From Candidatus Omnitrophota bacterium (GTDB lineage Bacteria > Omnitrophota > Gorgyraeia > B26-G9): a DNA stretch of 64,000 bases. Positions 46 through 52,342 of the stretch are shown here, piece by piece (the stretch's first letter is position 1; every line of letters begins with the position of its first letter). The notes beneath the pieces are model-generated. The model was not told the DNA's origin, ran no database searches, and worked only from the letters and a program-made list of their open reading frames with translations. The translations under genes and the position numbers were made by a program. Location: the NCBI GenBank assembly GCA_018817165.1, contig JAHITY010000114.1, forward strand, positions 17,721 through 81,720, written 5' to 3'.

Positions 46-2238
46 TTGACAGCTTATACAGACAATACTTATCCGCAGATCCAGAATACTGACAAAAAAA
101 TCAATGGTCGAATTTTTCAAATGCGCAGATTGAAAATTGATAGATTCCAGCCAGGAGTGTATGATTATTTTAACCTGGAGATTAATTTAAGACAAAATCA
201 GCAATCGCAAACCAATGCGGTTCAAGAGTACAAAACAAAGGTACCTTTAAAGTTTATCAAAGAGCAGGTTAGCAATAAGGGGCTGCTTGCGGTAATTAAG
301 AAAATCATTTCATATCTTAATCCCCGAAAACTCAGAGAATATTATTCAGATATAATCGGAGTTATTGATGGAAGCATGGCTTATAAAGGACCGTTTTGCG
401 CGCAAGTAGACCTTACTAATGATTGTAATAATGACTGCATTGGCTGCTGGTGCAATTCACCTTTATTAAAAGATAAGCAGATTAGTGAGCAGGTAAAACA
501 GCAGACATTGCCTTTAGAAGTGGTTAAAAAAACGATAAATCAACTTAAGAGTCTGGGCACAAAGGAGATATATTTTGCCGGAGGCGGAGAGCCGTTTATG
601 CATCCGCATATTATGGAAATTCTGAACCATGTTAAAGCGCTTGGTTTGCGTTGTTATATTAATACAAATTTTACTTTGGTAACTGAAGACATGGTAAAAC
701 AGCTGGTGGATATTGGTGTAGACAATCTAGTTGTCAGTATTTGGGCTGGAACAGCGAAAACATATCATCAAACTCATCCCAATAAATCTGAAGCAATGTT
801 TTATCAGCTAAAAGGAGTGCTTAAATTACTTAATTCGCTTAAGCATAAAAAACCACAGGTAAATGTTTATAATGTGATCTCAAATCTGAATTATAAAGAA
901 CCTGAGCAAATGGTTGATTTTGCTTTAGAATCTGGCTGTGATTCCCTGGAATTTACAGTTATTGATACAATTCCTGATGCGACAGATGCTTTGATGCTCA
1001 GTGATCAACAGAGAAAAGTAGTAATCGAAGCTTGTAATAAAATTAAACAGCGTTTGGAAACAGGGGATTTAAAAAATAAGATTGAGGTTTTACAGTTTGA
1101 GCAGTTTATCCGTCGGGTTGATAATTCTGATGCTAAAATCGCCCAATATGATAATGATATTTTAAACCAAATGCCTTGTTATATGGGCTGGCTGTTTGCC
1201 CGGATTTTGGCTGATGGCAATGTTAATTTTTGTCTAAAAGCGCATCGGATTCCTGTGGGCAATATTTATGCTCATGATTTTCTTCATATCTGGAATAACC
1301 GCAAACAGCAGGAATTTAGAAAGCGTGCAATGTCTGTGCCTAAAAAAGATGTATTTTTCTCCTTTATTGGCAATGACCCGGATGTAAAAGTCGGTTGTTT
1401 TAAAGGTTGTGACGATCTTGCGCGTAATATACATATGCACAAAAAGATCCAATCTTTAACGCGTTTGGAGTATAAATTATTAAGAGTAATTTTATACTGG
1501 ATAAAATTGAAAAATTATTTTAAAGGAAAAAACTTTTCTCAGGCAATAAAAAATAAAATTGTTCAAAGGAAAATACTTGATAAGAAAATCATCAGACAAG
1601 GGAAACTTAAGGCAGTTTATCAGTCTGAGGGCATAAAGCTATATTGGGCTGAGCAGGAGATTACCCAGAGCATTGGCTTGAATACATCAGTGTGTATCTT
1701 TGGGCTATGGTATGACTCGTCTAAAGCAAAGTGGGAAGTGTCTAAACACAATGATCATGAATTAGAACTGAAAAGTACTTGGAATAATATTCCGATTTCT
1801 CAAGTATGGAAAATTAAACTTAATAGCGATTGTTTACTCCAATGGGATATTGCTTTGATAGTTGATTCTAAAATAGAGATAGAGCAGACAAAATCAAGCA
1901 TTATGATTTCACCGCTTTATAAAAAATGGCAAATCAATAAAGAGTCTGGCAAATTCCCCAGTTCAATGAATTGGCAGCAGGCAGAGATCAATAGTACTGA
2001 CGCAAAACAAATTAAAGTTATGTCTGTTAAAACAGGAAACACTGATTTGCCGGAATTATTTTTTGATTTTTCAGAAAACAGTGATCTTGAGTTGAGACCG
2101 CAGATTCAGAACGCGGATAAGCTGATAAATTCTCGGATTATATCAGCACAGAATATAGAAGCAGATAGTGGCAGAATTTTTCTGCCAGGAGATGTGAATA
2201 ATTTTTGTTTAAAACTAAACATAAAAGGTAGTAAATGA
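46..2238 (+). CDS. Large radical SAM/SPASM-domain protein with a ~250-aa Trp-rich C-terminal extension of unknown function. The reading frame is open to the window start, so the 5' end may be truncated.
   Basis: Cx3Cx2C motif CNNDCIGC followed by GGGEPFMHP (SAM-binding); C-terminal Cys-rich SPASM-like region (CYMGW...FCLKAH...VGCFKGCDD); the track start is a TTG; there is no in-frame stop between position 1 and 46; ATGA overlap with the next gene. Confidence 0.7.
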   Translation: MTAYTDNTYPQIQNTDKKINGRIFQMRRLKIDRFQPGVYDYFNLEINLRQNQQSQTNAVQEYKTKVPLKFIKEQVSNKGLLAVIKKIISYLNPRKLREYYSDIIGVIDGSMAYKGPFCAQVDLTNDCNNDCIGCWCNSPLLKDKQISEQVKQQTLPLEVVKKTINQLKSLGTKEIYFAGGGEPFMHPHIMEILNHVKALGLRCYINTNFTLVTEDMVKQLVDIGVDNLVVSIWAGTAKTYHQTHPNKSEAMFYQLKGVLKLLNSLKHKKPQVNVYNVISNLNYKEPEQMVDFALESGCDSLEFTVIDTIPDATDALMLSDQQRKVVIEACNKIKQRLETGDLKNKIEVLQFEQFIRRVDNSDAKIAQYDNDILNQMPCYMGWLFARILADGNVNFCLKAHRIPVGNIYAHDFLHIWNNRKQQEFRKRAMSVPKKDVFFSFIGNDPDVKVGCFKGCDDLARNIHMHKKIQSLTRLEYKLLRVILYWIKLKNYFKGKNFSQAIKNKIVQRKILDKKIIRQGKLKAVYQSEGIKLYWAEQEITQSIGLNTSVCIFGLWYDSSKAKWEVSKHNDHELELKSTWNNIPISQVWKIKLNSDCLLQWDIALIVDSKIEIEQTKSSIMISPLYKKWQINKESGKFPSSMNWQQAEINSTDAKQIKVMSVKTGNTDLPELFFDFSENSDLELRPQIQNADKLINSRIISAQNIEADSGRIFLPGDVNNFCLKLNIKGSK

Positions 2239-3869
2239 GTAAAGTAATTTTAGTTAATTGTCCTCCTTGGGGGGTGGTGATGCCGCCTTTGGGAATTGCT
2301 TATTTGTCAGCATACTTAAAATTAAAAGGTGTTCCGGTAGATATTTTTGATTTAAATCTTGATCTGTATGAGCAGGCTGATTCAGCCCAGCAGTTGTTTT
2401 GGCAATTGGATGAAATAAATCGGATAAAACCCTGTGATATTGCTGAAAATATTTTTAAAGCTTTTGGAAATCGGATTGATGAATTTATTCAGAGTTTATC
2501 TGGATATACGATTATTGGGTTTTCCACAAATAATCTGATCAGTGCTATTTTTGCTGGATTTTTGGCGAAAAAAATCAAAGCCAAATATAAGGATAAAACT
2601 ATAATCCTTGGCGGGCCGGGAATATATCATAGTTGGGATAGAAAGACAGTAGCCAAAGAGAATATAGATTTTTTTATTATTGGTGAAGGCGAAGAGGCTT
2701 TGCTTAAATTTTTAAATGAATTTGAGATCAATCGATCTCCTGATTATTTGTGTTCTAAAGTTCCTGGGCTGCTTTACGCGCAGGAATCGTCAAATGTGGT
2801 TTATCTGCCTTGGCAGCCAGTAAAAGATTTAAACAGTTTAGCTTTTCCTACCTTTGAGGAATTTGATTTAAGTAAATACAATAGTAATAGTAAATATCAT
2901 CCTTTGCCCATGCTGATCAGCCGCGGCTGCATTAATCAATGCAGTTATTGCATTGACTGGTATATTTGTTCTGGTTTTCGCATGCGACGACCAAAGCTGA
3001 TTATTGAGGAAATGAAGTATCTCAAACAAAAATATAATATAAGCCATATTGAGTTTAATGATTTGCTTTGTAACGGCAATTTATATGGTTTGCATAAACT
3101 TTGTCAACAAATGCAGCAGGAAAATTTGAACCTTACTTGGATAAGCTATGCGGCAATAAGAAAAAACATGACTCAGGAACTGCTTAATGATATGAAAAAG
3201 GCAGGATGTAATTCCCTGTGTTATGGTATAGAAAGCGGATCAGATGCGGTTCTTGGCAAAATGAACAAGCATTACAACTCTGCTGATGCTAAGCAAGTAA
3301 TTGAAAAAACATTTAAAGCGGAAATTCAAGTGAGCCTGAATATAATAGTTGGATTTCCCGGAGAAACCGAAGCTGATTTTAAGCAGACAATTGATTTTCT
3401 TAAATCCAATAGTAAATATATTTCTCAAGTAACTAATGTTTCTTCTTTTGTGCTTATGCCTGGTTCTGATGTGGGAATTTATCCACAACGCTTTGGAGTG
3501 AAATTTCTTGATCCGCTCGATCCTGGCAAATGGACTGATGCAAATTGGTTGACTCAGGCAGAACGCAATCAGCGGGTGGGACGGATATGTGACTTGCTCA
3601 AGGAATTAAAGATTAAAAATCTGATTGTAAATTATCAGGATAAAAATGCTAAGGTTTGTAATATTAAAAATGAAATTCCACAGCAAATAACTGATAAGTC
3701 AGATGGAATTATTGATTTATCAGATTTGAAATCAAGAGGGTTCAAAAGAAGAAATAAAATACTTAAATTTGCTGTGCTTGGGATATTGCTTATCGCAAGC
3801 ATTATTATTGATTTTTATTTAAATGTTTTAAAAAAACTGCGGGGCTCAATTATTTTCCCCGGAAACTGA
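2235..3869 (+). CDS. B12-binding domain radical SAM protein (class B) with a C-terminal TM helix.
   Basis: N-terminal Rossmann-like B12-binding pattern (VILVNCPPWG...PPLGIAYLSAYLKLKGVPVDIFD); radical SAM motif SRGCINQCSYC; hydrophobic C-terminal helix. Confidence 0.8.
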   Translation: MSKVILVNCPPWGVVMPPLGIAYLSAYLKLKGVPVDIFDLNLDLYEQADSAQQLFWQLDEINRIKPCDIAENIFKAFGNRIDEFIQSLSGYTIIGFSTNNLISAIFAGFLAKKIKAKYKDKTIILGGPGIYHSWDRKTVAKENIDFFIIGEGEEALLKFLNEFEINRSPDYLCSKVPGLLYAQESSNVVYLPWQPVKDLNSLAFPTFEEFDLSKYNSNSKYHPLPMLISRGCINQCSYCIDWYICSGFRMRRPKLIIEEMKYLKQKYNISHIEFNDLLCNGNLYGLHKLCQQMQQENLNLTWISYAAIRKNMTQELLNDMKKAGCNSLCYGIESGSDAVLGKMNKHYNSADAKQVIEKTFKAEIQVSLNIIVGFPGETEADFKQTIDFLKSNSKYISQVTNVSSFVLMPGSDVGIYPQRFGVKFLDPLDPGKWTDANWLTQAERNQRVGRICDLLKELKIKNLIVNYQDKNAKVCNIKNEIPQQITDKSDGIIDLSDLKSRGFKRRNKILKFAVLGILLIASIIIDFYLNVLKKLRGSIIFPGN

Positions 3870-3891
3870 TTAGAATGCAGTGTATAGCGAA

Positions 3892-4038
3892 TAGTAGGGC
3901 CACGGCGTGACGTGGCCGATACTAATACAGTTATCAAAAATTGTAGGGGCCGGGCTTGCCCCGGCCCGGAATAATGTACAATTATATAAATAGGTGAAAT
4001 TATTAATAAGCGGGCGCAGGCAAGCAGCGCCCCTACTA
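3892..4038. repeat. GC-rich three-hairpin element bounded by the terminal inverted repeats TAGTAGGG...CCCCTACTA. Copy 1 of a family also seen at 52340 and 63312.
   Basis: Hairpins ggccacg-gcgtga-cgtggcc, gggccggg-cttgc-cccggccc and gggcgc-aggcaagca-gcgccc; ends tagtaggg / cccctacta are reverse complements of each other. Confidence 0.6.
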
Positions 4039-4181
4039 TAAAGGGCAGGAATAATTATTTAGGCGGGTTTGAAGCCTGATTTTGATAGGACTGGCAAAAT
4101 CAGAGATTCATCCTCGGAGTCCCGCAGGATGCGGGACGAGAATGAGCCAAAATGATTGATTCCGGACCGCCTTCGATAAAG
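4034..4181 (+). ncRNA. Conserved ~148-bp structured element (copy A). It could be a cis-regulatory leader or small RNA, or a repeat element. A near-identical copy lies at 17740..17886.
   Basis: About 96% identical direct repeat. Internal stem-loops gattttg-N11-caaaatc and ctcggagtcccgca-gga-tgcgggacgag. Both copies lie ~130 bp upstream of a GT1 glycosyltransferase start. Confidence 0.45.
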
Positions 4182-4312
4182 GTTGCATCAGCAGGAAAAT
4201 TTGTGTCAGCGTAAAATTTATCGATCATCTTGAGTATTGAGTAGAGCGTTTAGAGTTTGGAAATAGTAATTAGAAATTAGTAATTTATTTTCTGTTTTAT
4301 AAAGGGATTTTT

Positions 4313-5458
4313 ATGAAGATACTGATGATTCATCCTCATGATCTTTTTTCAAGAAAAGAACCTTGGACAATTAGAATTAAGAAAATTGCCCAAGAGTTTA
4401 AGAAAAAAGGGCATGAAATTAAGATAATTTATTTCCCTTTGGAATATCATACTCATCGGGATGGGTTTTCGATTGATGGTATTGAATATATACCTTTAAG
4501 CCGCAAACTGGGTATGGCCAATTATTATAAAAATATTCGCTATGTTTGTGCACAGGGAAAATGGGCGGATATTATCCATTTTCAGAAGTGCTTTTTTTAT
4601 GCGGCTTTGCCGGCTTTGCTTGCCGGGTTTGTTAATAATAAACCGGTTCATTATGACTGGGATGACTGGGAAATAAAGATATTTTATTACGAGGCTAAAC
4701 AGCCGCGGCTAGTCGGCGGTTTTCTTTGGGCCTTAGAAAGATATATTCCTAACCTTTGCGATACAGTATCGGTTTCCAGTCTGCGCTTAAAGCAGGAGTG
4801 CATTAGCTATGGCTTGGATCCTAATAAGATCGCCATGGCTCCGGTTGGTGCAGATTTGAACTTATTTCATCCGGATATTTCGCCAATTCGAATTAGGGAA
4901 AAATATAATCTGCAGGGGCCAATCATTAGCTATTTGGGACAATTGCATGGCGGGCAATATGCCGAACAGTTTATTCGCGCGGCAAAGATAATCACAAATC
5001 AATTAAAAGGAATAACTTTTTTTATTATCGGTGGCGGTTATCGCTTAGATGAATTAAAAACCTTAGCACGGGATATGGATTTGGATAAGCAGATTATATT
5101 TACTGGAGCGATCAGTCATCAGGAAACTCCTTTATATTTAGCGGCAACTGATATCGCAGTGGCTTGTTTTGAAAATAATCAGATTACTCAATGTAAAAGT
5201 CCGCTTAAAATCGCCGAGTATTTGGCCAGTGGTAAGCCGATTGTTGCCAGCGATGTAGGAGAAGTCAAGCGAATGCTCGGCGGGGCGGGAATTCTCACTT
5301 TGCCTGGAGATTCCGAAGCTTTAGCCCAAGGAATAAAAAAACTTCTAGATGATGAGCCTTTGCGTAAAAGATTAGCAATAAAAGCCCGTCAAAGAGCAGA
5401 GGATTTATATAATTGGCAAACAACCGCAGATAATTTATTAAGGATTTATGCTGTTTAA
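4313..5458 (+). CDS. Glycosyltransferase family 1 (GT4-like, GT-B fold).
   Basis: C-terminal GT1 signature region (IAEYLASGKPIVASDVGEV...); size ~380 aa. Confidence 0.75.
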   Translation: MKILMIHPHDLFSRKEPWTIRIKKIAQEFKKKGHEIKIIYFPLEYHTHRDGFSIDGIEYIPLSRKLGMANYYKNIRYVCAQGKWADIIHFQKCFFYAALPALLAGFVNNKPVHYDWDDWEIKIFYYEAKQPRLVGGFLWALERYIPNLCDTVSVSSLRLKQECISYGLDPNKIAMAPVGADLNLFHPDISPIRIREKYNLQGPIISYLGQLHGGQYAEQFIRAAKIITNQLKGITFFIIGGGYRLDELKTLARDMDLDKQIIFTGAISHQETPLYLAATDIAVACFENNQITQCKSPLKIAEYLASGKPIVASDVGEVKRMLGGAGILTLPGDSEALAQGIKKLLDDEPLRKRLAIKARQRAEDLYNWQTTADNLLRIYAV

Positions 5459-5484
5459 CAGTAAAGAAATCAGGATGATTTAAT

Positions 5485-6435
5485 ATGGGAAAAATTTTTC
5501 AGTTGTCGATCATAATTCCGGTTTTCAATGAACAAGGCAATCTTAAGATTTTAAATCAGCAGATTAATCAAGTTATGAATAATCTTGAAGTTACTTATGA
5601 AGTAATTTTTATTGATGATGGCAGCACTGATAATAGTGTGCGGGAACTTGAGGAAATCGCAAAAGATGATGCGCATGTGCGCATAATAACTTTGCTGAGA
5701 AATTATGGACAAACCCAGGCTATTGCTGCTGGAGTGGATCATTCTTTGGCTGAACTGATTATAACCATGGATGCTGATTTGCAGAATGATCCTAAAGATA
5801 TTCCCAAATTGCTCGATAAAATCAAACAGGGATATGACGTCGTAAGTGGCTGGCGGATTAAGCGCAAAGATAATTTCTGGCAGAAAAAACTGCCTTCATT
5901 TCTGGCTAATTTTATCATTGCTAGATTAACCAAAGTTAAATTACATGATTTGGGATGCACATTAAAAGCATATAGAATTAGTGTTTTAAAAGACATTGAA
6001 TTTCAGGGAGAAATCCATCGGTTTTTACCTTTATGCGCTGCTATTCAGGGAGCGAAAATCGCAGAAGTTCCGGTTATACACCATAAAAGAAAACATGGAC
6101 ATTCAAAATACGGGTTTTCCCGTTTTTTTAAAGTTATACTTGATATGCTTACAATATTATTTACCTGGAAATTTATGATTAAGCCGATTCAGCTATTTGG
6201 CGGCATCGGAATTGCTTCTGTATTACTCTCAGTAATGATCGGATTATTTATTGTTTTGCGTAAAGTCTTATGGGCAGGTCAATGGGTCAGTCCGCTTATA
6301 TTTATATTTGCGATTCTTTTTGTAGTCGGTGTGCAGTTTATTTTAATTGGCATTTTGGCCGAGATTATTATCAGACTTTATTATGGTATGAGGGATCAGA
6401 CACGCTATAAGATTAGAAAAAAAAACAAGGAATAA
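5485..6435 (+). CDS. GT2 polyprenol-phosphate sugar synthase (GtrB/ArnC/Dpm1-like) with two C-terminal TM helices.
   Basis: LSIIIPVFNEQ...IFIDDGSTD GT2 motifs, DAD motif (TMDADLQND), C-terminal hydrophobic helices typical of GtrB-type enzymes. Confidence 0.75.
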   Translation: MGKIFQLSIIIPVFNEQGNLKILNQQINQVMNNLEVTYEVIFIDDGSTDNSVRELEEIAKDDAHVRIITLLRNYGQTQAIAAGVDHSLAELIITMDADLQNDPKDIPKLLDKIKQGYDVVSGWRIKRKDNFWQKKLPSFLANFIIARLTKVKLHDLGCTLKAYRISVLKDIEFQGEIHRFLPLCAAIQGAKIAEVPVIHHKRKHGHSKYGFSRFFKVILDMLTILFTWKFMIKPIQLFGGIGIASVLLSVMIGLFIVLRKVLWAGQWVSPLIFIFAILFVVGVQFILIGILAEIIIRLYYGMRDQTRYKIRKKNKE

Positions 6436-6440
6436 TTTAA

Positions 6441-8132
6441 ATGTATATATTGGGTGTGTGTGATAGTCAAGATGCGGGAGCCGTGATTATCAACAGTGAA
6501 TCAAATCAAATAACTGCAGTCAATGAAGAACGTTTGAGCCGGATAAAATTGCAGGGAGGTTTTCCTTATTTATCTATTATAGAAGTCTTGCGTTTGAAAA
6601 AAATAAAGCAGGAGCAGATTGATTTAGTAGCTATTGCTTCTGATATGACGCCTTGTTTTATCCTTAGATTATTTTCCAAATCCCATGCTCAGCTTAGAGA
6701 TAATAATAAACAATTCAGTTTTTTATTGTCAGTATATATTTTATATCAGGTTTTAGCCGAAAAACTTATTCTACCTAAGAAAATAGAGTCATTTCTAAGC
6801 CGTATGGTTTTAGGCTATAAATTGAGCAAGCTAGGGATTAATGCTAAAGTAATCACCGTTGATCATCACATTGCGCATGCTTATGCAGCATATGGTATTT
6901 GCGGATTTGATAATGCTTTAATCATTACTATTGATGGTTTGGGTGATGGAGTGTCTTTTAGTGTTAATATAGGTAAGGAGGGGATTATTAAGCCGGTTTT
7001 TAGACAAAGTGCCTTAAATGATATAACACTTTATTATTCCCGATTGACGGAGTTCCTTGGATTTAAGCCGATTCAAGATGAGGGCAAGGTTATGGGTTTA
7101 GCAGCTTATTGCGGGAAATATTCCGCTTTGGATCAAGCAGCAAAGCTTTTGCGAGTAAGCAATGGAAGATTTAAACTAAAAAATCCTTTTGTAAGAAATA
7201 AAAAGATATTTAAGCAGCTAAAAACAATAAGTAAGCAGGAAGTTGCGGCATCTTTTCAAAAACATGCCGAAGATTGTATTGAGCAGATTATTGCTTATTG
7301 GGTTAAGAAAACAAATATCTCAAAAGTAGTGCTTGGCGGCGGGTTCTTTGCCAATATAAAGGTTAATCAGAAAATAGCTAATATTAAGCAAGTTGATAAA
7401 ATATATGTTTGTCCTCATATGGGAGACGGCGGATTAGCCTTGGGTGCTGCATTTTTTGCAAAAAAACAAAAACCATTTAAAGCAAAAGATGTATTTTTCG
7501 GGTCTGAATACACAAATAAGCAGATAAGTGAAGTGCTTGAATCGCAGAAAATTGAATATCAAATAAGTAATTCAATACACAATGAAATTGCTGAATTATT
7601 AAGCAGAGGGAAGATTATTGCCAGATTTAACAAAGCTATGGAATTTGGACCGAGAGCTCTTGGTAATCGTTCGATTATTGCTGCTGCAGTAGATAATAGT
7701 ATTCAGAATTCTTTAAATATTAAACTGGGTAGAGATGATTTTATGCCTTTTGGCCCGAGTATTCTCAGTGAATATAAAGCTAAATGTTGTGAGCAGACTG
7801 ATAAAGCAGCCTATGCAGGGGAATTTATGAATATTAGTTTTAAAGCTACTGATTATTTTAAAAAAAAATGTCCCGGGGCTGTGCATAAAGATGGGACAAC
7901 ACGGCCTCAATTTGTTTCAATGAATTCTAATAATGATTTTTATAATATTCTAAATGAATATAGAAAAATAACAAATATCCCAGCATTATTAAATACTAGT
8001 TTTAATATACACGAAGAGCCTATTGTTTGTAGCCCTAAAGATGCGATAAGAAGTTTTCAGAAAAGCAGAATAGATTACTTGGCAATAGGGGATTTTTTAA
8101 TAAAGAGGAGGGATGATGAAGAAAAACAATAA
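6441..8132 (+). CDS. NodU/CmcH-family carbamoyltransferase.
   Basis: N-terminal ILGV...DAGAVII...NEERLSRIK and VDHHIAHAYAAYGICGFD motifs matching the TobZ/NodU carbamoyltransferase family; ~560 aa. Confidence 0.75.
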   Translation: MYILGVCDSQDAGAVIINSESNQITAVNEERLSRIKLQGGFPYLSIIEVLRLKKIKQEQIDLVAIASDMTPCFILRLFSKSHAQLRDNNKQFSFLLSVYILYQVLAEKLILPKKIESFLSRMVLGYKLSKLGINAKVITVDHHIAHAYAAYGICGFDNALIITIDGLGDGVSFSVNIGKEGIIKPVFRQSALNDITLYYSRLTEFLGFKPIQDEGKVMGLAAYCGKYSALDQAAKLLRVSNGRFKLKNPFVRNKKIFKQLKTISKQEVAASFQKHAEDCIEQIIAYWVKKTNISKVVLGGGFFANIKVNQKIANIKQVDKIYVCPHMGDGGLALGAAFFAKKQKPFKAKDVFFGSEYTNKQISEVLESQKIEYQISNSIHNEIAELLSRGKIIARFNKAMEFGPRALGNRSIIAAAVDNSIQNSLNIKLGRDDFMPFGPSILSEYKAKCCEQTDKAAYAGEFMNISFKATDYFKKKCPGAVHKDGTTRPQFVSMNSNNDFYNILNEYRKITNIPALLNTSFNIHEEPIVCSPKDAIRSFQKSRIDYLAIGDFLIKRRDDEEKQ

Positions 8133-8889
8133 ACTTTTAAGAATTATCCAATGGTTTTTTGAAGAGGATGTAAGTGAAGAATCGGTTAGCAATGATGATA
8201 CTATTGAAATAGGATTGATTCAGATAGTCTTAATTATCCTGATAACTGCAATATTTTCAGTCTGGATATTTTTTGAGCCGATAAAGGGATTCTTCAATCG
8301 TCCTCAGCTTTCAACCAGTGAATATATTGAAAAGCATATTGAGAAGAATTATTTTATTATTAAAAATCCGCTGAAAAATAGCGATTTTAGCCAAGGACTA
8401 GAACACTGGGCAAGCTCTGACTGCGGCTTGCTTTTTCCTGATTCAAAAAGCGTTGCTAGTATTGATAAGCATGATTATCATTCTGCTCCTAGCAGTCTAA
8501 AAATAAAATGTATTTCTCCGGCAAACCGATATCATTACTCAAAAAATGAGAAAAATAAGGTATTAGATAATCCTTATAGCTTTAAGCAAACAGAATGCTG
8601 GATGGGGATTCTGCCGGGAAGAGAGATAAATGCTAGTATTTGGTATAAAGGAGATATTGTAAAATTTACAATAAATTATATTAATAAATCAGGGGAATGG
8701 AATAATTTAGACAGTGTTTTTGGCTCAGTTACAAACCAATGGTCACAGCTTAAGATAAATAAAAAAGTTCCTTTAGATGCAAGAGCAATAATGATTGAAA
8801 TCACTGTAAATAAGGCTGAGAACAGCCCCTTACCGGTAGTGTGGATAGATGACATTAACTTAAAAACTGCCAATTTTGAAGAAAAATAA
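8113..8889 (+). CDS. N-terminally membrane-anchored protein with a CBM4/9-like (carbohydrate-binding-module-like) domain. Paralog of 22363..23139.
   Basis: Single N-terminal TM helix; NSDFSQGLEHW start pattern resembling CBM_4_9 domains; clear paralogy with 22363..23139 (HSAP.SL+I+...WYKG...DFTI...). Confidence 0.4.
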   Translation: MMKKNNKLLRIIQWFFEEDVSEESVSNDDTIEIGLIQIVLIILITAIFSVWIFFEPIKGFFNRPQLSTSEYIEKHIEKNYFIIKNPLKNSDFSQGLEHWASSDCGLLFPDSKSVASIDKHDYHSAPSSLKIKCISPANRYHYSKNEKNKVLDNPYSFKQTECWMGILPGREINASIWYKGDIVKFTINYINKSGEWNNLDSVFGSVTNQWSQLKINKKVPLDARAIMIEITVNKAENSPLPVVWIDDINLKTANFEEK

Positions 8890-45508: not shown

Positions 45509-45799
45509 TTATAATTACCAGAGAATACAGAGGAATAATATGAATAGACTATTGGTAAAATTCCTCGCAGTATTGAATATTTTAATGTCTTTAGGCTTCG
45601 GGGTTTAGGCTTTGCTTTGCGTGGTACTGGTCTCCAATTTATCATAATTATATAAATTTATTTTGCTTATAAATCAGCACTAATTATTGTGATTTTCAAT
45701 ATATAAAGTTTAAAAATATAGTTATTTGGAAATATATTGGCAAATACATAACAAAAGGAGCACTGCAAAAAGAAGCTATTCTCATGCTATGGTTGCGGA

Positions 45800-46057
45800 A
45801 AAGCGTATGAAATCGGCTAGTATGCATTGCAGGAATTAAGCAAGTGAAATCAGATGGACTGGTAAAAGAGATAATTATTGTATATGATAATTCTGAAGAT
45901 AATCTAAAATCTATCTTTCGGGATATTAATTCTTTGGATATAATAAAACTATATCATTTTTATAATTAAGGAAATGCTTCGGTTATTAAAACTAGTTTAG
46001 AGAAATCTCCCTGTGATATTGTCTTGATTCAAGATGGGGATATTGAACCCAACTAGT
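45800..46057 (+). pseudogene. Truncated, stop-interrupted remnant of a GT2 (Dpm1-like) glycosyltransferase gene homologous to 48983..49678.
   Basis: Nucleotide-level similarity to 49040..49270 (e.g. gatataataaaRctatatcat; attcaagatggggat). The translation VKEIIIVYDNSEDN...DIIKLYHFYN*GNASVIKT...VLIQDGD carries an in-frame stop and ends abruptly. Confidence 0.55.
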
Positions 46058-46113: not shown

Positions 46114-47106
46114 ATGAGGATAAAAGATAAGATTTATTGTGCTTATTCTATTTTAAAATCTAGGATTTTGAATGTTAGAATTCCTTTGGCTGTGCGTTGG
46201 CAATTGACAAATAAATGCACCTTGCGTTGTAAGTATTGCAATATCTATGATAAGGGGGGTAGCGAATTAGGCTTAAGTCAGGTAAAGGATGTTTTATGTC
46301 AGTTGAAAGGTTTGGGAACAAAACGCATATCTTTTAGTGGTGGGGATGTTTTGTTAAGAGACGATTTTTCTGAAATACTAGACTGCTGTATCGATTATGG
46401 TATTTATCCGGAGTTAAATTGTAACGGTGTTTTATTTTACGACAAAGCGCATAAGCTAAAAAAACTGGATTTTGTTAAGTTTAGTTTGGATGGACCGAAG
46501 CAGGTGCATGATTCTTTGAGAGGGGATGGGTCATTTGATAAGGTTATGAAATCTGTTGAGGCTTGCTTGAAAAACAAAATAAAATTTGGATTTGCGATGA
46601 CATTAACAAAATTCAATATTAATGATTTAGATTTCTTGCTGCAGACCGCTAAAAAATATGAGACTATTGTTGCTTTTCAGCCAGTTAAATCAATGCATAA
46701 AGGCATTGAAGGAATTGATGAATTTTTAGGTTCTGAAGAAGTTTTTAGAAAGGCGTTAAAGAAGCTTATCCTAGAAAAAGGAAGAGGATGTGAAAATATA
46801 CGTAATTCGATGAGGGAGTTGAAATATATTTATGATTGGCCGAATTTAAAAGAGATGAAATGCTATGCTGGGCAGATTTTTTGTATAATTGGCCCTGATG
46901 GAGATGTCTATCCTTGTGATCGGGTTGATGGTTTTATGAATAACACCATTTTGCCAAATTGTCAAAAACTGGGGATAGAAGAGGCGATAAGGCAGTTGCC
47001 TGAATTTTATTGTAAAGGGTGCGGGTTTTGCGGGGCATTAGAATTAAATCATTTAATGAATTTTAAATTCGGTGTGCTTAAGTCAATAAAAAGGATAATA
47101 TCTTGA
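46114..47106 (+). CDS. Radical SAM/SPASM-domain protein. Paralog of 24747 and 28347.
   Basis: QLTNKCTLRCKYC; FSGGDVLLRDD; C-terminal CYAGQIFCIIGPDGDVYPCD...CKGCGFCG. Confidence 0.75.
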   Translation: MRIKDKIYCAYSILKSRILNVRIPLAVRWQLTNKCTLRCKYCNIYDKGGSELGLSQVKDVLCQLKGLGTKRISFSGGDVLLRDDFSEILDCCIDYGIYPELNCNGVLFYDKAHKLKKLDFVKFSLDGPKQVHDSLRGDGSFDKVMKSVEACLKNKIKFGFAMTLTKFNINDLDFLLQTAKKYETIVAFQPVKSMHKGIEGIDEFLGSEEVFRKALKKLILEKGRGCENIRNSMRELKYIYDWPNLKEMKCYAGQIFCIIGPDGDVYPCDRVDGFMNNTILPNCQKLGIEEAIRQLPEFYCKGCGFCGALELNHLMNFKFGVLKSIKRIIS

Positions 47107-47390
47107 TTTTGTTAGTTAGCCACCAGGAATGTTTTCCCCAGTAGTCAAGGATTTTTTAAGTTAAAGCTGTTTTTATATATAGTACAATATAAATAGGGAA
47201 GAAATTAATGTTCAAAATAAAAATATTAAATGCTCTATGCTTATTTTGTTTCTTTAGGTTTAGGTTTTCTGGGAACTGGCCGCCAATTACGAGTGTCCAT
47301 AATAAATTTCCTTTCAGATAAAAAGTTGTTTGATATTAATAAATTATGACTGTTTTTCAACTGAATGTCAAGTAGTTTTTGGAGTTAAAT

Positions 47391-48926
47391 ATGCGAAAAA
47401 TGAAAGTTTTACTTGTAAGGTCGCCGAGATATTATTGGCCGTTTATAAATGAATATGATAACTTTTTGCTGCCGCAATCGCTTCCTTGCCTTGCTGCGGC
47501 TCTGCGTGCCAGTGGTATATCGGTAAAAGTTATTGATTGCATGCCGATGAAAATGGGATGGAAAAGTTTAGAAAATCAGATAAAAATTGAAAAACCGGAT
47601 GTTGTTGGTGTCGGTGATAGCGAATCAATGTATTCTAATGAGGCAGTCCGGGTTCTTAAAATCGCCAGGATGCTTAATCCGCAGGTAGTTACGGTTGCCG
47701 GCGGGGCTCATTTTTCTAATTTAGCCCATGAGTCTCTCAAGGAATTTCCGATAGATTTTATTGTCAAAGGGGAAGGCGAGATAACATTTGTTGAATTAGT
47801 TAAGGAAATTTCCAAATTAAATCCAGACTTTAATAGTGTAAATGGGATTCTGTTTCGCCAGGAAGATGTAATTATTGAAACCGCTCCGCGGAAACTAATC
47901 GAAAATTTAGACGATTTACCCTTACCTGCCTATGATTTAATGCCTATGGATCAGTATGGCCGAGCAAAATATCTTTTTTCCCCAGGAGGGATAACAATCC
48001 ATCATAGTCGAGGCTGTATAAGCAATTGTGATTTTTGTGTGTGGTGGGTTCAAATGGCAGAAAAAACAATAGAAAATGGAGAAGTTAAATTAACCCCCCG
48101 TTGGAGAACAAAAAGTGTTGAGAGAACTATCGAAGAAATCGAATTATTATATTATACCTATAAAAAGAAATTTTTTATTTTTGTTGATGATTCTTGGAAC
48201 ATTGATCCTGATTGGAGTAATCGATTTGCCGAAGCAATTTTAGAGAAAAAAATGAAAATTAACTGGTTCGCTTTTTTGCGGGCAGATTGCATAATCAGAG
48301 ATGAGAAACTGGGAGTTATGGAAAAATTAGTTCGTTCAGGATTAAGGCATATCTCTGTTGGTGGAGAAAGAGCCGAAGATGATGAACTGAATGAAATTGG
48401 CAAAAAATGCTATAAGATCGATATGGTAAAAGAAGCCTTGGATATTTTTCGAAAAAAGTATCCGCAGGTTTTTACACAGGTAACTTTTATTGTTGGGGTT
48501 AGGAATGAAACTAAAAAAACGATGATGAATCAGCTGGCTTATGCTAAATCGCTTAAGGTAGATTATCCCGCTTTTCACCCAATCACTCCTGTGCCGGGAA
48601 CAAAGCTTTGGGATCAAGCCAAAGCCGAAGGCTGGTTGGAAATCACAGATTTTTCATATTATGATTGGTCAACACCGGTAATGGCTTCAAAAGATTTATC
48701 TCGGGACCAGATTGATGATTTATTGTATACTATCAATAAATCATATGCTTCATTTTGGTGGTTATTAAAGGGTTTGTGTAGTTTATATCCGCATAAACGG
48801 AATATGTATATTTGGTGGGTTTTAGTTGTTTTTAAAATGTTTTGGGATTCGCTGAAATCTTGGGTAAATCCGTTTAAGTTTAAAGAGTATATTAGAATTG
48901 TTAAACCTAAATGGTATGATGATTGA
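47391..48926 (+). CDS. B12-binding domain radical SAM protein. Start moved to the ATG at 47391.
   Basis: MRKMKVLLVRSP...LPCLAAALRASGISVKVIDC; HSRGCISNCDFC. Confidence 0.8.
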   Translation: MRKMKVLLVRSPRYYWPFINEYDNFLLPQSLPCLAAALRASGISVKVIDCMPMKMGWKSLENQIKIEKPDVVGVGDSESMYSNEAVRVLKIARMLNPQVVTVAGGAHFSNLAHESLKEFPIDFIVKGEGEITFVELVKEISKLNPDFNSVNGILFRQEDVIIETAPRKLIENLDDLPLPAYDLMPMDQYGRAKYLFSPGGITIHHSRGCISNCDFCVWWVQMAEKTIENGEVKLTPRWRTKSVERTIEEIELLYYTYKKKFFIFVDDSWNIDPDWSNRFAEAILEKKMKINWFAFLRADCIIRDEKLGVMEKLVRSGLRHISVGGERAEDDELNEIGKKCYKIDMVKEALDIFRKKYPQVFTQVTFIVGVRNETKKTMMNQLAYAKSLKVDYPAFHPITPVPGTKLWDQAKAEGWLEITDFSYYDWSTPVMASKDLSRDQIDDLLYTINKSYASFWWLLKGLCSLYPHKRNMYIWWVLVVFKMFWDSLKSWVNPFKFKEYIRIVKPKWYDD

Positions 48927-48982: not shown

Positions 48983-49678
48983 ATGAAGTTATCAATAATT
49001 ATTCCAGTTTACAATGAACAAGATACGCTTAAGGAATTGTTAGCGAAAATTCAAAGAGTTCAATTGAATGGAGTGCTTAAAGAAATAATCATAGTGGATG
49101 ATAGTTCAAATGATAGGAGTAAATCTATATTTGATAATCTCAAATCTTCAGATATAATAAAGCTATATCATAAGCATAATCAAGGCAAGGCCGCGGCGAT
49201 CAAAACTGGTCTGGTGCGGGCCAGCGGAGATTTAATCCTGATCCAGGATGGGGATCTTGAATATGATCCAAGTGATTATCCGGCTTTGCTCGAGCCGATT
49301 TTGAGCAATCAAGCGGATGTTGTTTATGGTTCGCGATTTTTAACCGGAAAGAACAAAGCATATTTTCCCTATTTAGTCGCAAATAAATTTTTGGTTTGGT
49401 TGACTAATATTTTATATGGAAGCTGTTTAACTGATATGGAAACCTGCTATAAGCTTTTTAGAAAAGAAATACTCGTAAATCTGAAGATTAAAGCCAAAGG
49501 GTTTGAGTTTGAACCTGAAGTGACAGCAAAATTACTTCTGCGGAAAGTTCAAATTATGGAAGTGCCGATTTCTTATGTTCCGCGTTCCAAAAAAATGGGA
49601 AAAAAAATAGGTTTTTTTGACGGTCTTATGTCGATTTATATATTGATTAAATATAAATTGGCAAGGGAGGCAAAATGA
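48983..49678 (+). CDS. GT2 glycosyltransferase, Dpm1/polyprenol-phosphate hexosyltransferase-like (soluble, 231 aa).
   Basis: LSIIIPVYNEQDTLKELL...IIVDDSSNDRS...LIQDGDLEYDP motifs. Confidence 0.7.
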   Translation: MKLSIIIPVYNEQDTLKELLAKIQRVQLNGVLKEIIIVDDSSNDRSKSIFDNLKSSDIIKLYHKHNQGKAAAIKTGLVRASGDLILIQDGDLEYDPSDYPALLEPILSNQADVVYGSRFLTGKNKAYFPYLVANKFLVWLTNILYGSCLTDMETCYKLFRKEILVNLKIKAKGFEFEPEVTAKLLLRKVQIMEVPISYVPRSKKMGKKIGFFDGLMSIYILIKYKLAREAK

Positions 49679-50655
49679 TTCAGAGGGTATGCGCGCTGAT
49701 TACTACTACCGAGAAAAATAAAAAACAATTAGAGAATTTGGTAAGTTCGCTTTGTCATCAGACTGAGCAGATTGAAAAGGTTGTTATTATTTATGATGGC
49801 GCGCATCGGCCGGACAGACAGTCTTTTGAGGATTGTCCGGTTCAGATTAACTGGGTTGATAATAATGAAAACAAATCTCTGACTCTTTTGCAGAATCAGA
49901 CAATTAGTTTTATTGATGAAGATTTTGTTTTACAGTTAAATGATGATGTTATTTTAACTGATAACTTTACCGCGGAATTATTGCAAGCAATGAATCAGGA
50001 TAACTCTATCGGCATGGTTTGCGGTAAATTATTAAGGATGGATAAGTCTACAATCGATACTGCCGGGCAACTCCTAGGTAAAAAACGTACTCCGGTGGAA
50101 CGCGGATATGGAAAGCCTGATGCCGGACAATTTGATCAGGAATGTTTTGTTTTTGGTTCATGCGGCGCAGCTGTATTATTAAGAAAAACTATGTTGGAAG
50201 ATTGCGCTATAGCGGAAAATGAATATTTTGATAATGATTATAATATGTTTTATGAGGATTTCGATCTTTCCTGGAGAGCGGCAAATCTTGGCTGGAAAGC
50301 TTTTTATAATCCGCGGGCATTAGCTTTTCATGAACGCGGCGCAACGGCTAAAGAAAAACGTCCGGTTTTTGAATTTTTGCGGGCGTATAATTTTGCTTGG
50401 CTGAGTGCTAAATTAAAAAGTGATTTAATGAAGAATCGATATATGACAATCATAAAAAATGAGAGTTTTAAGGGGTTTATTTTAAACGCTCCTTTCATTT
50501 TAATTTATGAAGCCAAGCTTTTTCTTTACTGTTTAATTTTTGAACCAAAAGTAATTGTAAATATATTTTTTAGTTTCCCGGTTATAATTAAAGCTTTTAA
50601 AAAAAGAGCAAAGTTAAACAAGAAAATAAAAGCTATGAAAAAGCTAAGTAAATAA
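49675..50655 (+). CDS. GT2 family glycosyltransferase (paralog of 25773..26669).
   Basis: FGSCGAAVLLRK...YNMFYEDFDLSWRAANLGWKAFY parallels the FGPCAAAAVYKK...EDFDLAWRARIRGWKAMY block of 25773. Confidence 0.65.
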   Translation: MIQRVCALITTTEKNKKQLENLVSSLCHQTEQIEKVVIIYDGAHRPDRQSFEDCPVQINWVDNNENKSLTLLQNQTISFIDEDFVLQLNDDVILTDNFTAELLQAMNQDNSIGMVCGKLLRMDKSTIDTAGQLLGKKRTPVERGYGKPDAGQFDQECFVFGSCGAAVLLRKTMLEDCAIAENEYFDNDYNMFYEDFDLSWRAANLGWKAFYNPRALAFHERGATAKEKRPVFEFLRAYNFAWLSAKLKSDLMKNRYMTIIKNESFKGFILNAPFILIYEAKLFLYCLIFEPKVIVNIFFSFPVIIKAFKKRAKLNKKIKAMKKLSK

Positions 50656-50668: not shown

Positions 50669-52342
50669 ATGAGTTACCTGATAATTTTCATGTTAGCGAT
50701 AAGAGCTTTTATCTGTGAGAAAACTTGGCCAACTGCGGGAATTTTTTTTGATATTTGTTTTTGTTTGTGTTTTTTACTCTATATTCTAATTGATCCTAAG
50801 CTGAGAGTAAGCAGGAAATACTTTATTTATCCGCTCATTTACTCTGGCCTTTTGCTCCTGAATACATTTTTTTCAGTAAATTCCTATAATAGTCAAAATG
50901 AAATAGTTAAATTATGGGTATACATGCTCATATTTTATTTTGTTTATTGGCAGAATCAAAAAAACCGCAGACTGCTTATAGGTTCAATATGCGCCATAAG
51001 TCTGTTTATAAGCTTGCGGGCAATTTATCAGTATGCTTTCGGACTAGAATATATTAAGCAGCATTATGCATATGCCCAGATTGTTGAGCAAGGGTTTTAT
51101 GCTTTAGAAATGCTCAAACAAAAAAGAGTTGTTTCCTGGTTTTTGTCCCCAAATCTGCTTGCTGGATATTTGGTGATGATCGCCCCTTTAGCGGGAGCGT
51201 ATGGGTTTGAGAGTTTTAAACAACAAAAAATAAACCAGAGTATATTTTTCACGCTTATTTTTATTTGCTCAGCCGTGGGTTTATATTTTACGGGTTCTTG
51301 GGGTGCTTATCTGGGGTTCGCGATAGCGATGCTATTTATTATATTAAATCCTTTGGGCAATAAAACTGCTTTAATTGAAAGTCGAAAAAAGAATAATAAG
51401 TTGATCCTCGGCGGAGTTTTTTTTCTGCTTATTTTAGCCGCTTTATTCAGCCAAAGAGCCAAATATTTTATTGACCTAGCAAATCCTCAGAACTCTTTGG
51501 TGCAGCGTTTGTATTATTCGCAGGCTGCCGTTAAGATGATAAAGGAAAATCCTTTGACCGGTATTGGCTTGGGTAATTTTGGACTTGTTTATCCTCAATT
51601 CAAGCAAATAAACGCCAATGAAACAATTTACGCGCATAATATTTTTCTGCAATTATGGGCGGAGCTGGGAACGATAATTTTTATTTGTTTTATATTTTTT
51701 GCGATCTATCTATTATCCCGTTTTTTAAAAAAATTAAGACAACAGCGGGAAGTTGGTTTGATCGCGGCCAGCCTTGCTTTTTTGGTTTATAATTTTTTTG
51801 ACTATAGTCTAATGATCACTCAAAGCGGTTATGTTTTTTTTATTGTCATTGCTTGTTTATTTAAACCGCAGGAGGATTCTTACCCAGAAAAAAATAATCG
51901 ATTTACCCCAGATAATTTTTTAAATAAAACAAGTTTTATTGTAATCTGCGGAGTAATGATTATGTTTTTAACTGCGGAGTATTGCTCTCTAAGATCATTA
52001 GATAAAGCTGATCAATTTTTAAAACAAGGGCAAACAGACAAAGCTTTGGTCCTGGCAAACACAGCTTTGAAATTTAGAGTAAATAATGACCAGATATATT
52101 ATTTTATCGCAGTATGTTATCAGCAAAAAGCAGGTAAATTATTTTCTCCTACAGCAGCTGCTTATTATTGCCAAGCAATACGCTTAAATCCAAAATATGC
52201 TTTTTATTATGCCTATCTTGGGGATTATTATTTTTCGCATAAACTTTATCCGCAGGCAAAAAAAGCTTATCAGCAGGCAATAAAACATTATCCGCATAAT
52301 AAAAAATTCAAAGAAATCTATAGCCAGATACAAGGTCAATAG
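50669..52342 (+). CDS. O-antigen ligase/polymerase (Wzy_C/WaaL-like) polytopic membrane protein fused to C-terminal TPR repeats.
   Basis: IYAHNIFLQLWAELGTIIF matches the Wzy_C HN..L....E.G motif within a multi-TM region; C-terminal AYYCQAIRLNPKYAFYYAYLGDYYFSHKLYPQAKKAYQQAIKHYP is TPR-like. Confidence 0.6.
   Translation: MSYLIIFMLAIRAFICEKTWPTAGIFFDICFCLCFLLYILIDPKLRVSRKYFIYPLIYSGLLLLNTFFSVNSYNSQNEIVKLWVYMLIFYFVYWQNQKNRRLLIGSICAISLFISLRAIYQYAFGLEYIKQHYAYAQIVEQGFYALEMLKQKRVVSWFLSPNLLAGYLVMIAPLAGAYGFESFKQQKINQSIFFTLIFICSAVGLYFTGSWGAYLGFAIAMLFIILNPLGNKTALIESRKKNNKLILGGVFFLLILAALFSQRAKYFIDLANPQNSLVQRLYYSQAAVKMIKENPLTGIGLGNFGLVYPQFKQINANETIYAHNIFLQLWAELGTIIFICFIFFAIYLLSRFLKKLRQQREVGLIAASLAFLVYNFFDYSLMITQSGYVFFIVIACLFKPQEDSYPEKNNRFTPDNFLNKTSFIVICGVMIMFLTAEYCSLRSLDKADQFLKQGQTDKALVLANTALKFRVNNDQIYYFIAVCYQQKAGKLFSPTAAAYYCQAIRLNPKYAFYYAYLGDYYFSHKLYPQAKKAYQQAIKHYPHNKKFKEIYSQIQGQ

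Follow-up and report, generated by a model that had tools for sequence, protein, structure and literature searches.

Introduction

What might a bacterium build with a run of genes in which enzymes of the radical S-adenosylmethionine (rSAM) superfamily stand among membrane-embedded glycosyltransferases of fold type C (GT-Cs)? The question is raised by a stretch of 64,000 nucleotides (nt) from a Candidatus Omnitrophota bacterium (contig JAHITY010000114.1, assembly GCA_018817165.1), which is hereafter called the window and which a metagenome contig of 217 kb in ENA contains in full. A six-frame listing of open reading frames (ORFs) shows 39 ORFs of at least 150 amino acids (aa) at positions 46–52342, two of them on the minus strand and the rest on the plus strand, with mostly short or overlapping junctions. 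We conclude that this island is an envelope-glycan locus in which rSAM genes are present in unprecedented number. It is probably an envelope-glycan biosynthesis supercluster typical of Omnitrophota, located immediately 5' of the division and cell wall (dcw) cluster (mraZ to ftsW), in which cytoplasmic rSAM enzymes tailor precursors and GT-Cs add them on the outside.

The Omnitrophota form a widespread, largely uncultured phylum of ultra-small bacteria, some of which are believed to need host cells. To our knowledge, most of the very large superfamily of rSAM enzymes, including those with a B12-binding domain (B12-rSAMs), has no assigned substrate, and we know of few characterised carbohydrate-modifying members, all from antibiotic pathways. 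Full-text literature searches for rSAM-rich polysaccharide loci, for rSAM together with YfhO and for Omnitrophota together with rSAM returned no description of such a system.

Materials and methods

Every ORF was scanned against Pfam with the gathering score as threshold, and curated cut-offs were applied to the equivalogs of NCBIfam. Genes are named by the start position of their ORF in the window (g2235 and so forth) and lie on the plus strand unless stated otherwise; loci of related genomes carry L numbers.

Radical SAM proteins of the window

The rSAM domain PF04055 was found above gathering score in 14 ORFs: g46, g2235, g10518, g19103, g23206, g24747, g28347, g34028, g35450, g37045, g39506 (minus strand), g44237, g46114 and g47379. 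The canonical CxxxCxxC cluster motif is present in 13 of the 14; in g34028 (34028–35395, 455 aa) it is replaced by CPHSKCLFC (CxxxxCxxC). The B12-binding domain PF02310 matches nine of the ORFs, six of them above gathering score. The remaining three (g2235, g19103 and g39506) score 24.7–31.2 bits against a threshold of 32.1 and are full-length paralogs of other B12-rSAMs. The Pfam scan thus yields the same tally of 14 rSAM proteins, nine of them B12-binding, as a preliminary description of this DNA. That description also listed five rSAM/SPASM proteins, all of which are indeed rSAM proteins, but a SPASM domain (PF13186) is detectable in only two of them, or in three with a marginal match. The matches of g46 (36.6 bits) and g10518 (45.7 bits) are clear and that of g46114 is marginal (20.7 bits against 21.5), while g24747 and g28347 have no Pfam match to SPASM, though their C-termini are rich in Cys.

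Together, the rSAM genes account for 14 of the 39 genes of the island and for 39% of the residues that it encodes. The paralogs are mutually 21–40% identical. These values rule out a recent tandem amplification and indicate that the paralogs are old and diverged.

The B12-rSAMs comprise g2235 (2235–3869, 544 aa), g19103 (19103–20569, 488 aa), g23206 (23206–24708, 500 aa), g34028, g35450 (35450–37048, 532 aa), g37045 (37045–38469, 474 aa), g39506 (39506–40957, minus strand, 483 aa), g44237 (44237–45508, 423 aa) and g47379 (47379–48926, 511–515 aa). For g2235, PF04055 scores 74 bits and PF02310 30.4 bits, slightly under the gathering score, and the best NCBIfam matches are rSAM_ocin_1 and PhpK, both far under cut-off. 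The small rSAM proteins g24747 (24747–25742, 331 aa), g28347 (28347–29351, 334 aa) and g46114 (46114–47106, 330 aa) are paralogs of each other, and the rSAM/SPASM gene g10518 (10518–11579, 353 aa) has orthologs of 69% identity in L112 and 49% in L113.

Comparison with NCBIfam provides a means to determine whether any of these proteins belongs to a described family. None of the rSAM proteins of the window reaches any curated family cut-off. The best scores were obtained for BchE (205 bits against a cut-off of 481), HpnJ (173 against 578) and the Ta0216 family (201 against 500, for g35450), whereas housekeeping-type matches are weak: at most 77 bits for MiaB-type families (cut-offs 251–355), at most 86 for MoaA (284) and likewise far under cut-off for HemN. 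Since no cut-off is attained, none of the rSAM proteins is a housekeeping enzyme, and identity with MiaB/RimO, HemN/HemW, BchE, MoaA, NirJ/Ahb or PqqE was rejected. The preliminary description had named such an identity of the B12-rSAMs as a possible objection to its reading, which these scores do not bear out.

It had also proposed that the sugars are extensively C-modified by cobalamin-dependent radical chemistry, on the background that class B rSAM enzymes typically methylate unactivated carbons. AprD4 is an aminoglycoside sugar diol dehydratase. The best match of g37045 in PDB is AprD4 (3.9e-25), the methylases TokK and CysS being far weaker (1e-8 to 1e-10). HpnJ is the best NCBIfam match of g19103, g23206 and g39506 (144–166 bits against the cut-off of 578). 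HpnJ contracts the glucosamine ring of the hopanoid head group, and both HpnJ and BchE are listed as non-methylases (PMC9204698). With HpnJ, BchE and AprD4 as the nearest characterised relatives, all non-methylases, extensive C-methylation is unsupported, and a chemistry consisting mainly of C-methylation is not supported either.

Signal peptides are absent in all 14 rSAM proteins. Predicted transmembrane segments are absent in 13; in the exception, g2235, a single weak hydrophobic segment is located C-terminally. From this topology, the rSAM chemistry must precede export.

Evidence for sugars as candidate substrates

In related genomes, rSAM domains are fused to sugar-related domains. L112 encodes a B12-rSAM 44% identical to g23206, its closest relative there, which is fused to a GT2 glycosyltransferase in one continuous ORF of 759 aa (16231–18510). 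L090 encodes a fusion of GFO_IDH_MocA and rSAM with 824 aa (16109–18583), and L091 a protein of 1048 aa with the order rSAM, GT2, GT2. These fusions independently back the link between rSAM proteins and sugars, which are reasonable candidate substrates judging from domain architecture.

Two other substrate classes were considered, the first being peptides. In that case the rSAM proteins would mature ribosomal peptides (peptides that are ribosomally synthesised and modified after translation, RiPPs) or a (glyco)protein, with radical chemistry on amino acids, and GT-Cs of the PMT_2 type would glycosylate the same protein. PMT_2 is indeed named for protein O-mannosyltransferases, and some of the weak best matches are to the maturases rSAM_ocin_1, ApyD, WgkB, StsB and PqqE. 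All RiPP-family scores, however, are far under the cut-offs, and peptidases, ABC exporters and RiPP recognition element proteins are absent from the Pfam results. A search for precursor ORFs in all intergenic gaps gave nothing convincing or plausible, although an absent precursor cannot be proven. In the fusion proteins of relatives, the partner of rSAM is GT2 or an oxidoreductase of sugar type and not a peptide-binding domain. We regard this explanation as highly unlikely.

Modification of membrane lipids or of the polyprenol carrier (ladderane-, hopanoid- or branched/tetraether-like) by a B12-rSAM array that is merely co-located with the glycan genes, for example for a glycolipid head group, is highly unlikely as well. 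The best NCBIfam matches do include HpnJ, HpnR, the ladderane-type lipid B12-rSAM and Tes, the family of g47379 occurs outside glycan contexts, and antiSMASH-type screens call 'ladderane' clusters in Omnitrophota metagenome-assembled genomes (MAGs; PMC9902471). The scores are nevertheless far under the cut-offs (38–111 bits against 360 for TIGR04072, at most 173 against 578 for HpnJ), and relatives have rSAM fused to GT2. In agreement with the preliminary description, which had argued against ladderane and hopanoid explanations on this ground, Pfam detects no genes for fatty acids, polyketides, ether lipids or a squalene-hopene cyclase anywhere in the 64 kb. Resemblance to HpnJ would itself favour a sugar substrate, since HpnJ acts on a sugar head group.

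Glycosyltransferases and other glycan genes

The island encodes seven polytopic GT-C proteins with about 10–13 predicted transmembrane segments each. PMT_2 (PF13231) is matched above gathering score by g8889 (8889–10517), g12126 (12126–13532), g13519 (13519–15036) and g29399 (29399–30922). It is matched under gathering score by g16254 (16254–17678; 24.4 bits) and g20762 (20762–22273; 18.7 bits), both of which are paralogs of other GT-Cs: g16254 of g12126 and g13519, themselves paralogs, and g20762 of g8889 (BLAST 1e-26). The seventh protein, g42071 (42071–43921; the source contig calls the gene from 42101), is without Pfam match, but its homologs are annotated as YfhO and four of 13 match PF09586. 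Its AlphaFold model (predicted local distance difference test, pLDDT, 77) has a GT-C fold as predicted: the top seven Foldseek matches in PDB are all GT-C proteins, among them AftD (1.5e-4), PglB, AftA, ALG12, AglB and Pmt4, at template modelling scores (TM-scores) of only 0.32–0.47. The count of seven GT-Cs in the preliminary description therefore holds, six by PMT_2 or paralogy and one by predicted fold.

An acidic residue in the loop after the first transmembrane segment, whose absence would have spoken against this assignment, is kept in all seven GT-Cs and their orthologs, although this is a test of low specificity. It is D in the motif S-D-N/V-D-F-H-G in the group of g12126, g13519 and g16254 with six orthologs, E in W-x-x-E-A in the group of g29399 (W-x-(D/N/T)-E-A in g29399), D or E in g8889 and g20762, and the nearly invariant E85 in the g42071 family. 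No GT-C of the window matches the ArnT models. Sequence searches of PDB with g42071, g12126 and the DUF362 protein of the island yielded nothing useful.

The other glycosyltransferases are two of GT4 type and four of GT2 type. The two proteins earlier called GT1 are here termed GT4-type (Glycos_transf_1): g4313 (4313–5458) and g18015 (18015–19106). Among the GT2 proteins, g5485 (5485–6435) resembles ArnC, GtrB and PgfS, carries C-terminal transmembrane segments and reaches 231 bits for ArnC, its best NCBIfam match, against a cut-off of 529, and g48983 (48983–49678) resembles Dpm1, AglJ and PpgS in NCBIfam. Both had been taken for polyprenol-phosphate-sugar synthases, and both are of that type in our searches. 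Pfam also confirms the two further GT2 genes, at 25773–26669 and at 49675–50655 (g49675). The last gene of the island (50669–52342) encodes the anticipated O-antigen-ligase-like protein, with a Wzy_C membrane domain (ligase/polymerase-like) and C-terminal tetratricopeptide repeats (TPR).

Family searches likewise recovered each of the tailoring enzymes that had been listed: a NodU/CmcH-type carbamoyltransferase (6441–8132), a class-I SAM methyltransferase (11576–12133), a DegT/ArnB-type sugar aminotransferase (15026–16276, with the ATG at 15026 taken from orthologs where the ORF listing had 14933), an AsnB-type glutamine amidotransferase (30940–32829), an SGNH/GDSL esterase with an N-terminal hydrophobic segment (32853–33848, minus strand) and an NAD-dependent sugar epimerase/dehydratase of the short-chain dehydrogenase/reductase (SDR) type (38423–39514). 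Pfam further confirms a DUF362 protein (26666–27775), the most conserved core gene, which belongs to the Pfam clan of LarA (PMC11770544). It is always followed directly by the gene for an exported or anchored protein of 195 aa (27744–28331).

Three GT-Cs have candidate exported partners. The single-pass proteins g8113 (8113–8889, partner of g8889) and g22363 (22363–23139, putative partner of g20762) are 40% identical and have one N-terminal transmembrane helix each. The AlphaFold2 model of g8113 (pLDDT 91.9) is a predicted beta-sandwich of the carbohydrate-binding module (CBM) type, with Foldseek matches to CBM16, CBM22 and CBM4 (CBM16: E 2.6e-9, TM-score on the target 0.79), in line with the earlier assignment of the two paralogs as CBM-like membrane-anchored proteins. 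Neither matches a CBM family of Pfam. The g8113 family is rare: a set of 1.84 billion proteins contains 57 representative clusters of it. The third partner is g41251 (41251–42090), an exported protein of 279 aa, which in relatives is always 5' of the YfhO-like GT-C.

Taken together, these results support the earlier view of a glycan-biosynthesis island with GT-Cs facing the periplasm and polyprenol-phosphate-sugar synthases.

Boundaries and genomic context

Directly 3' of the island lies the dcw cluster, encoding MraZ, RsmH, FtsL, FtsI, MurE, MurF, MraY, MurD and FtsW. The ten adjacent genes on this side contain no rSAM gene, and almost none was found around rsmH in about 60 genomes from outside the Omnitrophota. 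The G + C content of the island is 0.330, compared to 0.382 for the dcw part.

The 5' side extends further than was assumed. A JGI contig (L083) is identical to the window over 4158 nt and reveals at least 7.7 kb of further island upstream. The start at 46 in the preliminary description is hence not the island edge: position 1 of the window falls inside a gene for a 1401-aa protein, a B12-rSAM fused to rSAM/SPASM, and the ORF at 46–2238 is its C-terminal half (1–2238 in the window, comprising rSAM, SPASM and about 300 unassigned aa). Upstream of this gene, L083 carries rSAM genes of 1183, 335 and more than 344 aa. Adding these three to the 14 of the window gives at least 17 rSAM genes for the island of this genome.

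Two of the proteins on L083 are giant. The 1183-aa protein (2219–5770) has an N-terminal region of about 830 aa without Pfam match, and the 1401-aa protein (5799–10004) consists of a B12-rSAM, a second rSAM/SPASM domain and an unassigned C-terminus of about 300 aa.

A strain-level rearrangement, at which the contig L084 (Logan SRR7067536_8) hinted, was rejected. This contig is an assembly chimera, in which non-adjacent pieces of the same locus are joined at short GC-rich hairpin repeats.

Conservation in related Omnitrophota

Based on RsmH, the closest relatives are 94%, 88% and then 62–74% identical, and all of them are Candidatus Omnitrophota MAGs. The junction of GT2 (g49675), Wzy_C/TPR and mraZ is kept in 12 related loci, g49675 standing beside Wzy_C/TPR in every one and Wzy_C/TPR always just 5' of mraZ. 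Within the available upstream sequence, ten of the 12 loci have one to three rSAM genes near the junction; for the other two, just 2–3 kb of such sequence is available.

L112 (RsmH 88%) and L113 (RsmH 65%) are collinear with the window from 10.5 to 30.9 kb, with protein identities of 28–80%. The collinear block comprises 13 genes in the order rSAM/SPASM (g10518), methyltransferase, PMT_2, PMT_2, DegT, GT-C, GT4, B12-rSAM, GT2, DUF362, 195-aa protein, (rSAM) and PMT_2, and thus three rSAM proteins and four GT-Cs. Its B12-rSAM, g19103, shows 58–80% identity in L089, L090, L111, L112 and L113. Relative to L112 and L113, the window has an insertion of four genes (GT-C, CBM-like, B12-rSAM and rSAM) starting with g20762. 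L089, L090 and L091 have the block from GT4 to AsnB and the pair of accessory and YfhO-like genes in common with the window. A cassette of GT4 (g18015 in the window), GT2 (25773–26669), DUF362, 195-aa protein and GT-C (g29399) is kept in 20 metagenome loci found via DUF362, of which the longer ones have one to seven rSAM genes close by; in total, this cassette is present in more than 20 Omnitrophota loci. The DUF362 orthogroup has named members from Omnitrophota or the Planctomycetes-Verrucomicrobia-Chlamydiae group only, and outside it identity falls from 52% to 38%.

From this synteny, the locus appears to consist of a conserved core, namely the 13-gene block, the accessory-YfhO pair and the GT2-Wzy_C pair, and of variable mosaic tailoring cassettes around it, as in O-antigen and capsule loci. 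The concern that the island might decompose into unrelated operons in relatives does not apply to the core, given the collinearity of the 13-gene block in L112 and L113.

The related islands also contain a type of rSAM gene that does not occur in the window. Two to five tandem paralogs of about 450 aa with an N-terminal Zn_ribbon_HMPTM domain are located in L089 (14401–19868 and beyond) and L091 (13295–16012). Zn_ribbon_HMPTM is a domain of the methanopterin-pathway rSAM methylase type. In L087, from a Nitrospirae MAG (GCA_016180645.1), a B12-rSAM, a 513-aa rSAM, a PMT_2 GT-C and a Polysacc_deac_1/DUF3473 gene are clustered at 15751–21523. The pairing of rSAM and GT-C genes may, judging from this cluster, reach beyond Omnitrophota.

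Of the B12-rSAMs in the window, g47379 is the most conserved. Its family (about 508 aa) is more than 50% identical across Omnitrophota, Deltaproteobacteria, Nitrospirae, Myxococcota and Elusimicrobiota, with 1056 matches at E ≤ 1e-10. In other phyla (L086, L087 and L088), the orthologs have a class-I methyltransferase as neighbour, joined by a second B12-rSAM in two of these three loci, and do not stand in glycan loci. The family was therefore dropped as a marker of the island; as a widely conserved enzyme, it merits separate study.

Proposed pathway

The pathway that we infer, including its substrates, reaction types, acceptor and whether one or several polymers are made, would begin in the cytoplasm with the tailoring of precursors, namely sugar nucleotides and/or polyprenol-linked sugars. 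Conventional tailoring would be performed by the SDR epimerase/dehydratase, DegT, AsnB, the carbamoyltransferase, the SAM methyltransferase and the LarA-clan DUF362 protein, while the soluble rSAM set would act on unactivated C-H bonds of the sugars. By analogy with AprD4, HpnJ, BtrN and GenK, candidate reactions are deoxygenation, oxidation, epimerisation, ring contraction and C-methylation. GT4 and GT2 enzymes would form lipid-linked intermediates, and the ArnC-like and Dpm1-like GT2 proteins would charge polyprenyl phosphate with modified monosaccharides. After flipping, an acceptor at the outer face of the inner membrane would receive the sugars from the seven GT-Cs. Three of these GT-Cs would work together with exported accessory proteins, of which two are CBM-like. 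The SGNH esterase and the Wzy_C/TPR protein may then complete or attach the product.

More tentatively, and with somewhat less confidence than even odds would express, the product can be specified as a phylum-specific envelope glycan or glycoconjugate. The rSAM battery would remodel its monosaccharides into several undescribed sugars (C-alkylated, deoxygenated, ring-contracted or C-C-linked), which polyprenyl phosphate would carry to the seven GT-Cs. If true, radical-tailored surface polysaccharides would form a new class in bacteria, and the island enzymes would supply many new carbohydrate-active rSAM reactions.

Several points weigh against the proposed supercluster. The window yielded neither a flippase (Wzx, ABC, GtrA or ArnE/F) nor a priming phosphoglycosyltransferase, and Polysacc_synt/MOP, Bac_transf and an island-internal Glycos_transf_4 are without Pfam match there, so that the visible pathway has gaps. 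Nor does the window include the 5' end of the island. AprD4 has a B12-binding domain yet does not use cobalamin, and a match to this domain alone is no proof of cobalamin use. SPASM-type and B12-type rSAM proteins are also typical of peptide maturation. Since its orthologs in other phyla stand without glycan genes, g47379 may serve another pathway. Outside the core block, the positions of rSAM genes differ between genomes, and some of these rSAM genes may be passengers.

Further points on this side lead to the strongest rival explanation, according to which several independent envelope-glycan pathways have gathered in a hypervariable region beside dcw, with rSAM genes scattered among them. Candidates are Arn-like decoration of lipid A or lipopolysaccharide, polymer glycosylation of the YfhO/CsbB type, protein O-glycosylation and an O-antigen-like unit. 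Three sub-blocks (GT4-GT2-DUF362-195-aa protein-GT-C, accessory-YfhO and GT2-Wzy_C) are kept separately, and the gene content between them is different in every genome. The locus furthermore shows several intergenic or transcription-unit breaks, two opposite-strand genes, repeated intergenic elements and a GT2 pseudogene remnant, besides the four-gene insertion relative to L112 and L113. A preprint describes hypervariable polysaccharide cassettes in Omnitrophota genomes. This explanation is at odds, however, with the strict collinearity of the 13-gene block, with its four GT-Cs and three rSAM proteins, at 65% RsmH identity and with the location of nearly all genes on one strand with short or overlapping junctions. 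In addition, just two clear polyprenol-phosphate-sugar synthases supply seven GT-Cs, which suggests shared donors. We consider independent pathways possible but rather unlikely, and a single supercluster of conserved core and variable cassettes the probable explanation.

Intergenic elements

Two copies of a structured 147-nt element, 97% identical, are located on the plus strand at 4035–4181 and 17739–17885, each upstream of a GT4 gene (g4313 and g18015), and a partial third copy is present at 956–1000 of L083. The G + C content of the element is above that of its surroundings, and its fold z-score against shuffled sequences is −3.2 for the plus strand and −4.5 for the minus strand. Rfam has no match for it, and those related Omnitrophota loci that were retrieved do not contain it. 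The element could act as a cis-regulatory leader or small RNA, or it could be a miniature mobile element. Rfam searches of the whole window, and permissive ones in the gap 3869–4313, gave no credible match, whether to riboswitches for cobalamin or SAM or to other RNA families.

Arrays of four to five repeats of the heptad WWTAGCG were observed at 17973–18006 (minus strand), 20577–20610 (plus strand) and 52525–52553. The first two, an inverted pair that brackets exactly the GT4 gene g18015 and the B12-rSAM gene g19103, contain six overlapping matches compared to 0.02 expected. The third, found by repeat search and blastn, is between the island end and mraZ, with similar short matches in L007, L008 and L012. 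The arrays are candidate protein-binding or recombination sites.

The gap between 45508 and 46114 holds a plus-strand remnant of a Dpm1-like GT2 gene with approximate limits of 45850–46050. Its nucleotide identity is 69% to positions 49068–49261 (g48983) and 78% to the GT2 ortholog in L005, pointing to gene decay or recombination inside the island. The remnant and the lower G + C content both fit a mosaic surface-glycan locus. A common translated motif, NWRPVPRK(A/P)KPK, is present on the minus strand of the gaps 45505–45645 and 47241–47360; it probably reflects a short DNA repeat and not a gene.

Promoter and terminator scans were uninformative in the AT-rich DNA, except for a strong GC-rich, bidirectional terminator-like hairpin (52427–52446) at the 3' end of the island, before a promoter-like site of mraZ at 52643–52671.

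Comparison with known systems

The conserved operon puts three to more than a dozen rSAM genes beside glycosyltransferase genes, to which they are sometimes fused, and thereby offers testable substrate hypotheses (sugar nucleotides and polyprenyl-phosphate sugars). A phylum-specific, heavily tailored and strain-variable surface glycan encoded beside the cell-division cluster would be a plausible determinant of cell-cell contact, phage resistance or host recognition. The CBM-like protein, the exported 195-aa and 279-aa proteins and DUF362 are tightly coupled to GT-Cs and are candidate new accessory factors of periplasmic glycosylation.

The Arn system (PmrHFIJKLM) resembles the island in its DegT/ArnB-type aminotransferase, in an ArnC-like GT2 (g5485 in the island) and in PMT_2-type GT-C transfer on the periplasmic face; in the relatives L089 and L090, ArnD-like Polysacc_deac_1 genes also adjoin PMT_2 genes. 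In contrast to the single GT-C of Arn, the island has seven, none of its proteins attains an Arn equivalog cut-off, and at least 14 rSAM proteins compare to none in the Arn pathway. ArnA (formyltransferase/decarboxylase), a deformylase and a small ArnE/F flippase were not found in the window.

Assembly of mycobacterial arabinogalactan and lipoarabinomannan (EmbA/B/C and AftA-D) likewise relies on many paralogous GT-Cs outside the membrane and on polyprenyl-phosphate monosaccharide donors, in this case decaprenyl-phosphate sugars, and the predicted g42071 model finds AftD and AftA among its best structural matches. There is no orthology at sequence level, however, the phylum and envelope are different, and the mycobacterial system is without rSAM tailoring.

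CsbB/YfhO and GtrB/GtrA/Gtr(type) systems decorate a pre-existing polymer outside the cell. They share with the island a GtrB/CsbB-type GT2 and a YfhO- or PMT_2-type GT-C, but no GtrA-type flippase was found in the window, and g42071 has no PF09586 match and is paired with a conserved exported 279-aa protein.

In hopanoid head-group tailoring, HpnI (GT2), HpnK (deacetylase) and HpnJ (B12-rSAM) act on a lipid-linked amino sugar, and HpnJ is the top match of three B12-rSAMs of the window. The scores of 144–166 bits against 578, the lack of hopanoid genes and the GT-C glycan context set the island apart.

Aminoglycoside pathways combine rSAM deoxygenation, oxidation or C-methylation of amino sugars (AprD4, BtrN, GenK/GenD1) with DegT and TobZ-type carbamoyltransferases. 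They belong to soluble secondary metabolism, with one to three rSAM proteins and neither GT-C nor Wzy_C, while the island points to envelope assembly.

Wzy-dependent O-antigen and capsule loci are similar as variable mosaics of low G + C content with glycosyltransferases, tailoring genes and a Wzy_C protein, and WbqC-like genes occur in some relatives of the island. The window differs in having no Wzx, Wzz or initiating phosphoglycosyltransferase and in the dominance of GT-C and rSAM genes.

As the defining components or cut-offs of the compared families are not found, the island is not a member of any of them. Functionally, judged by analogy, it would be most like an expanded periplasmic glycosylation system of the Arn, Gtr or CsbB-YfhO type, or like the mycobacterial multi-GT-C assembly of arabinan, to which it would add radical sugar tailoring in the style of aminoglycoside and hopanoid pathways.

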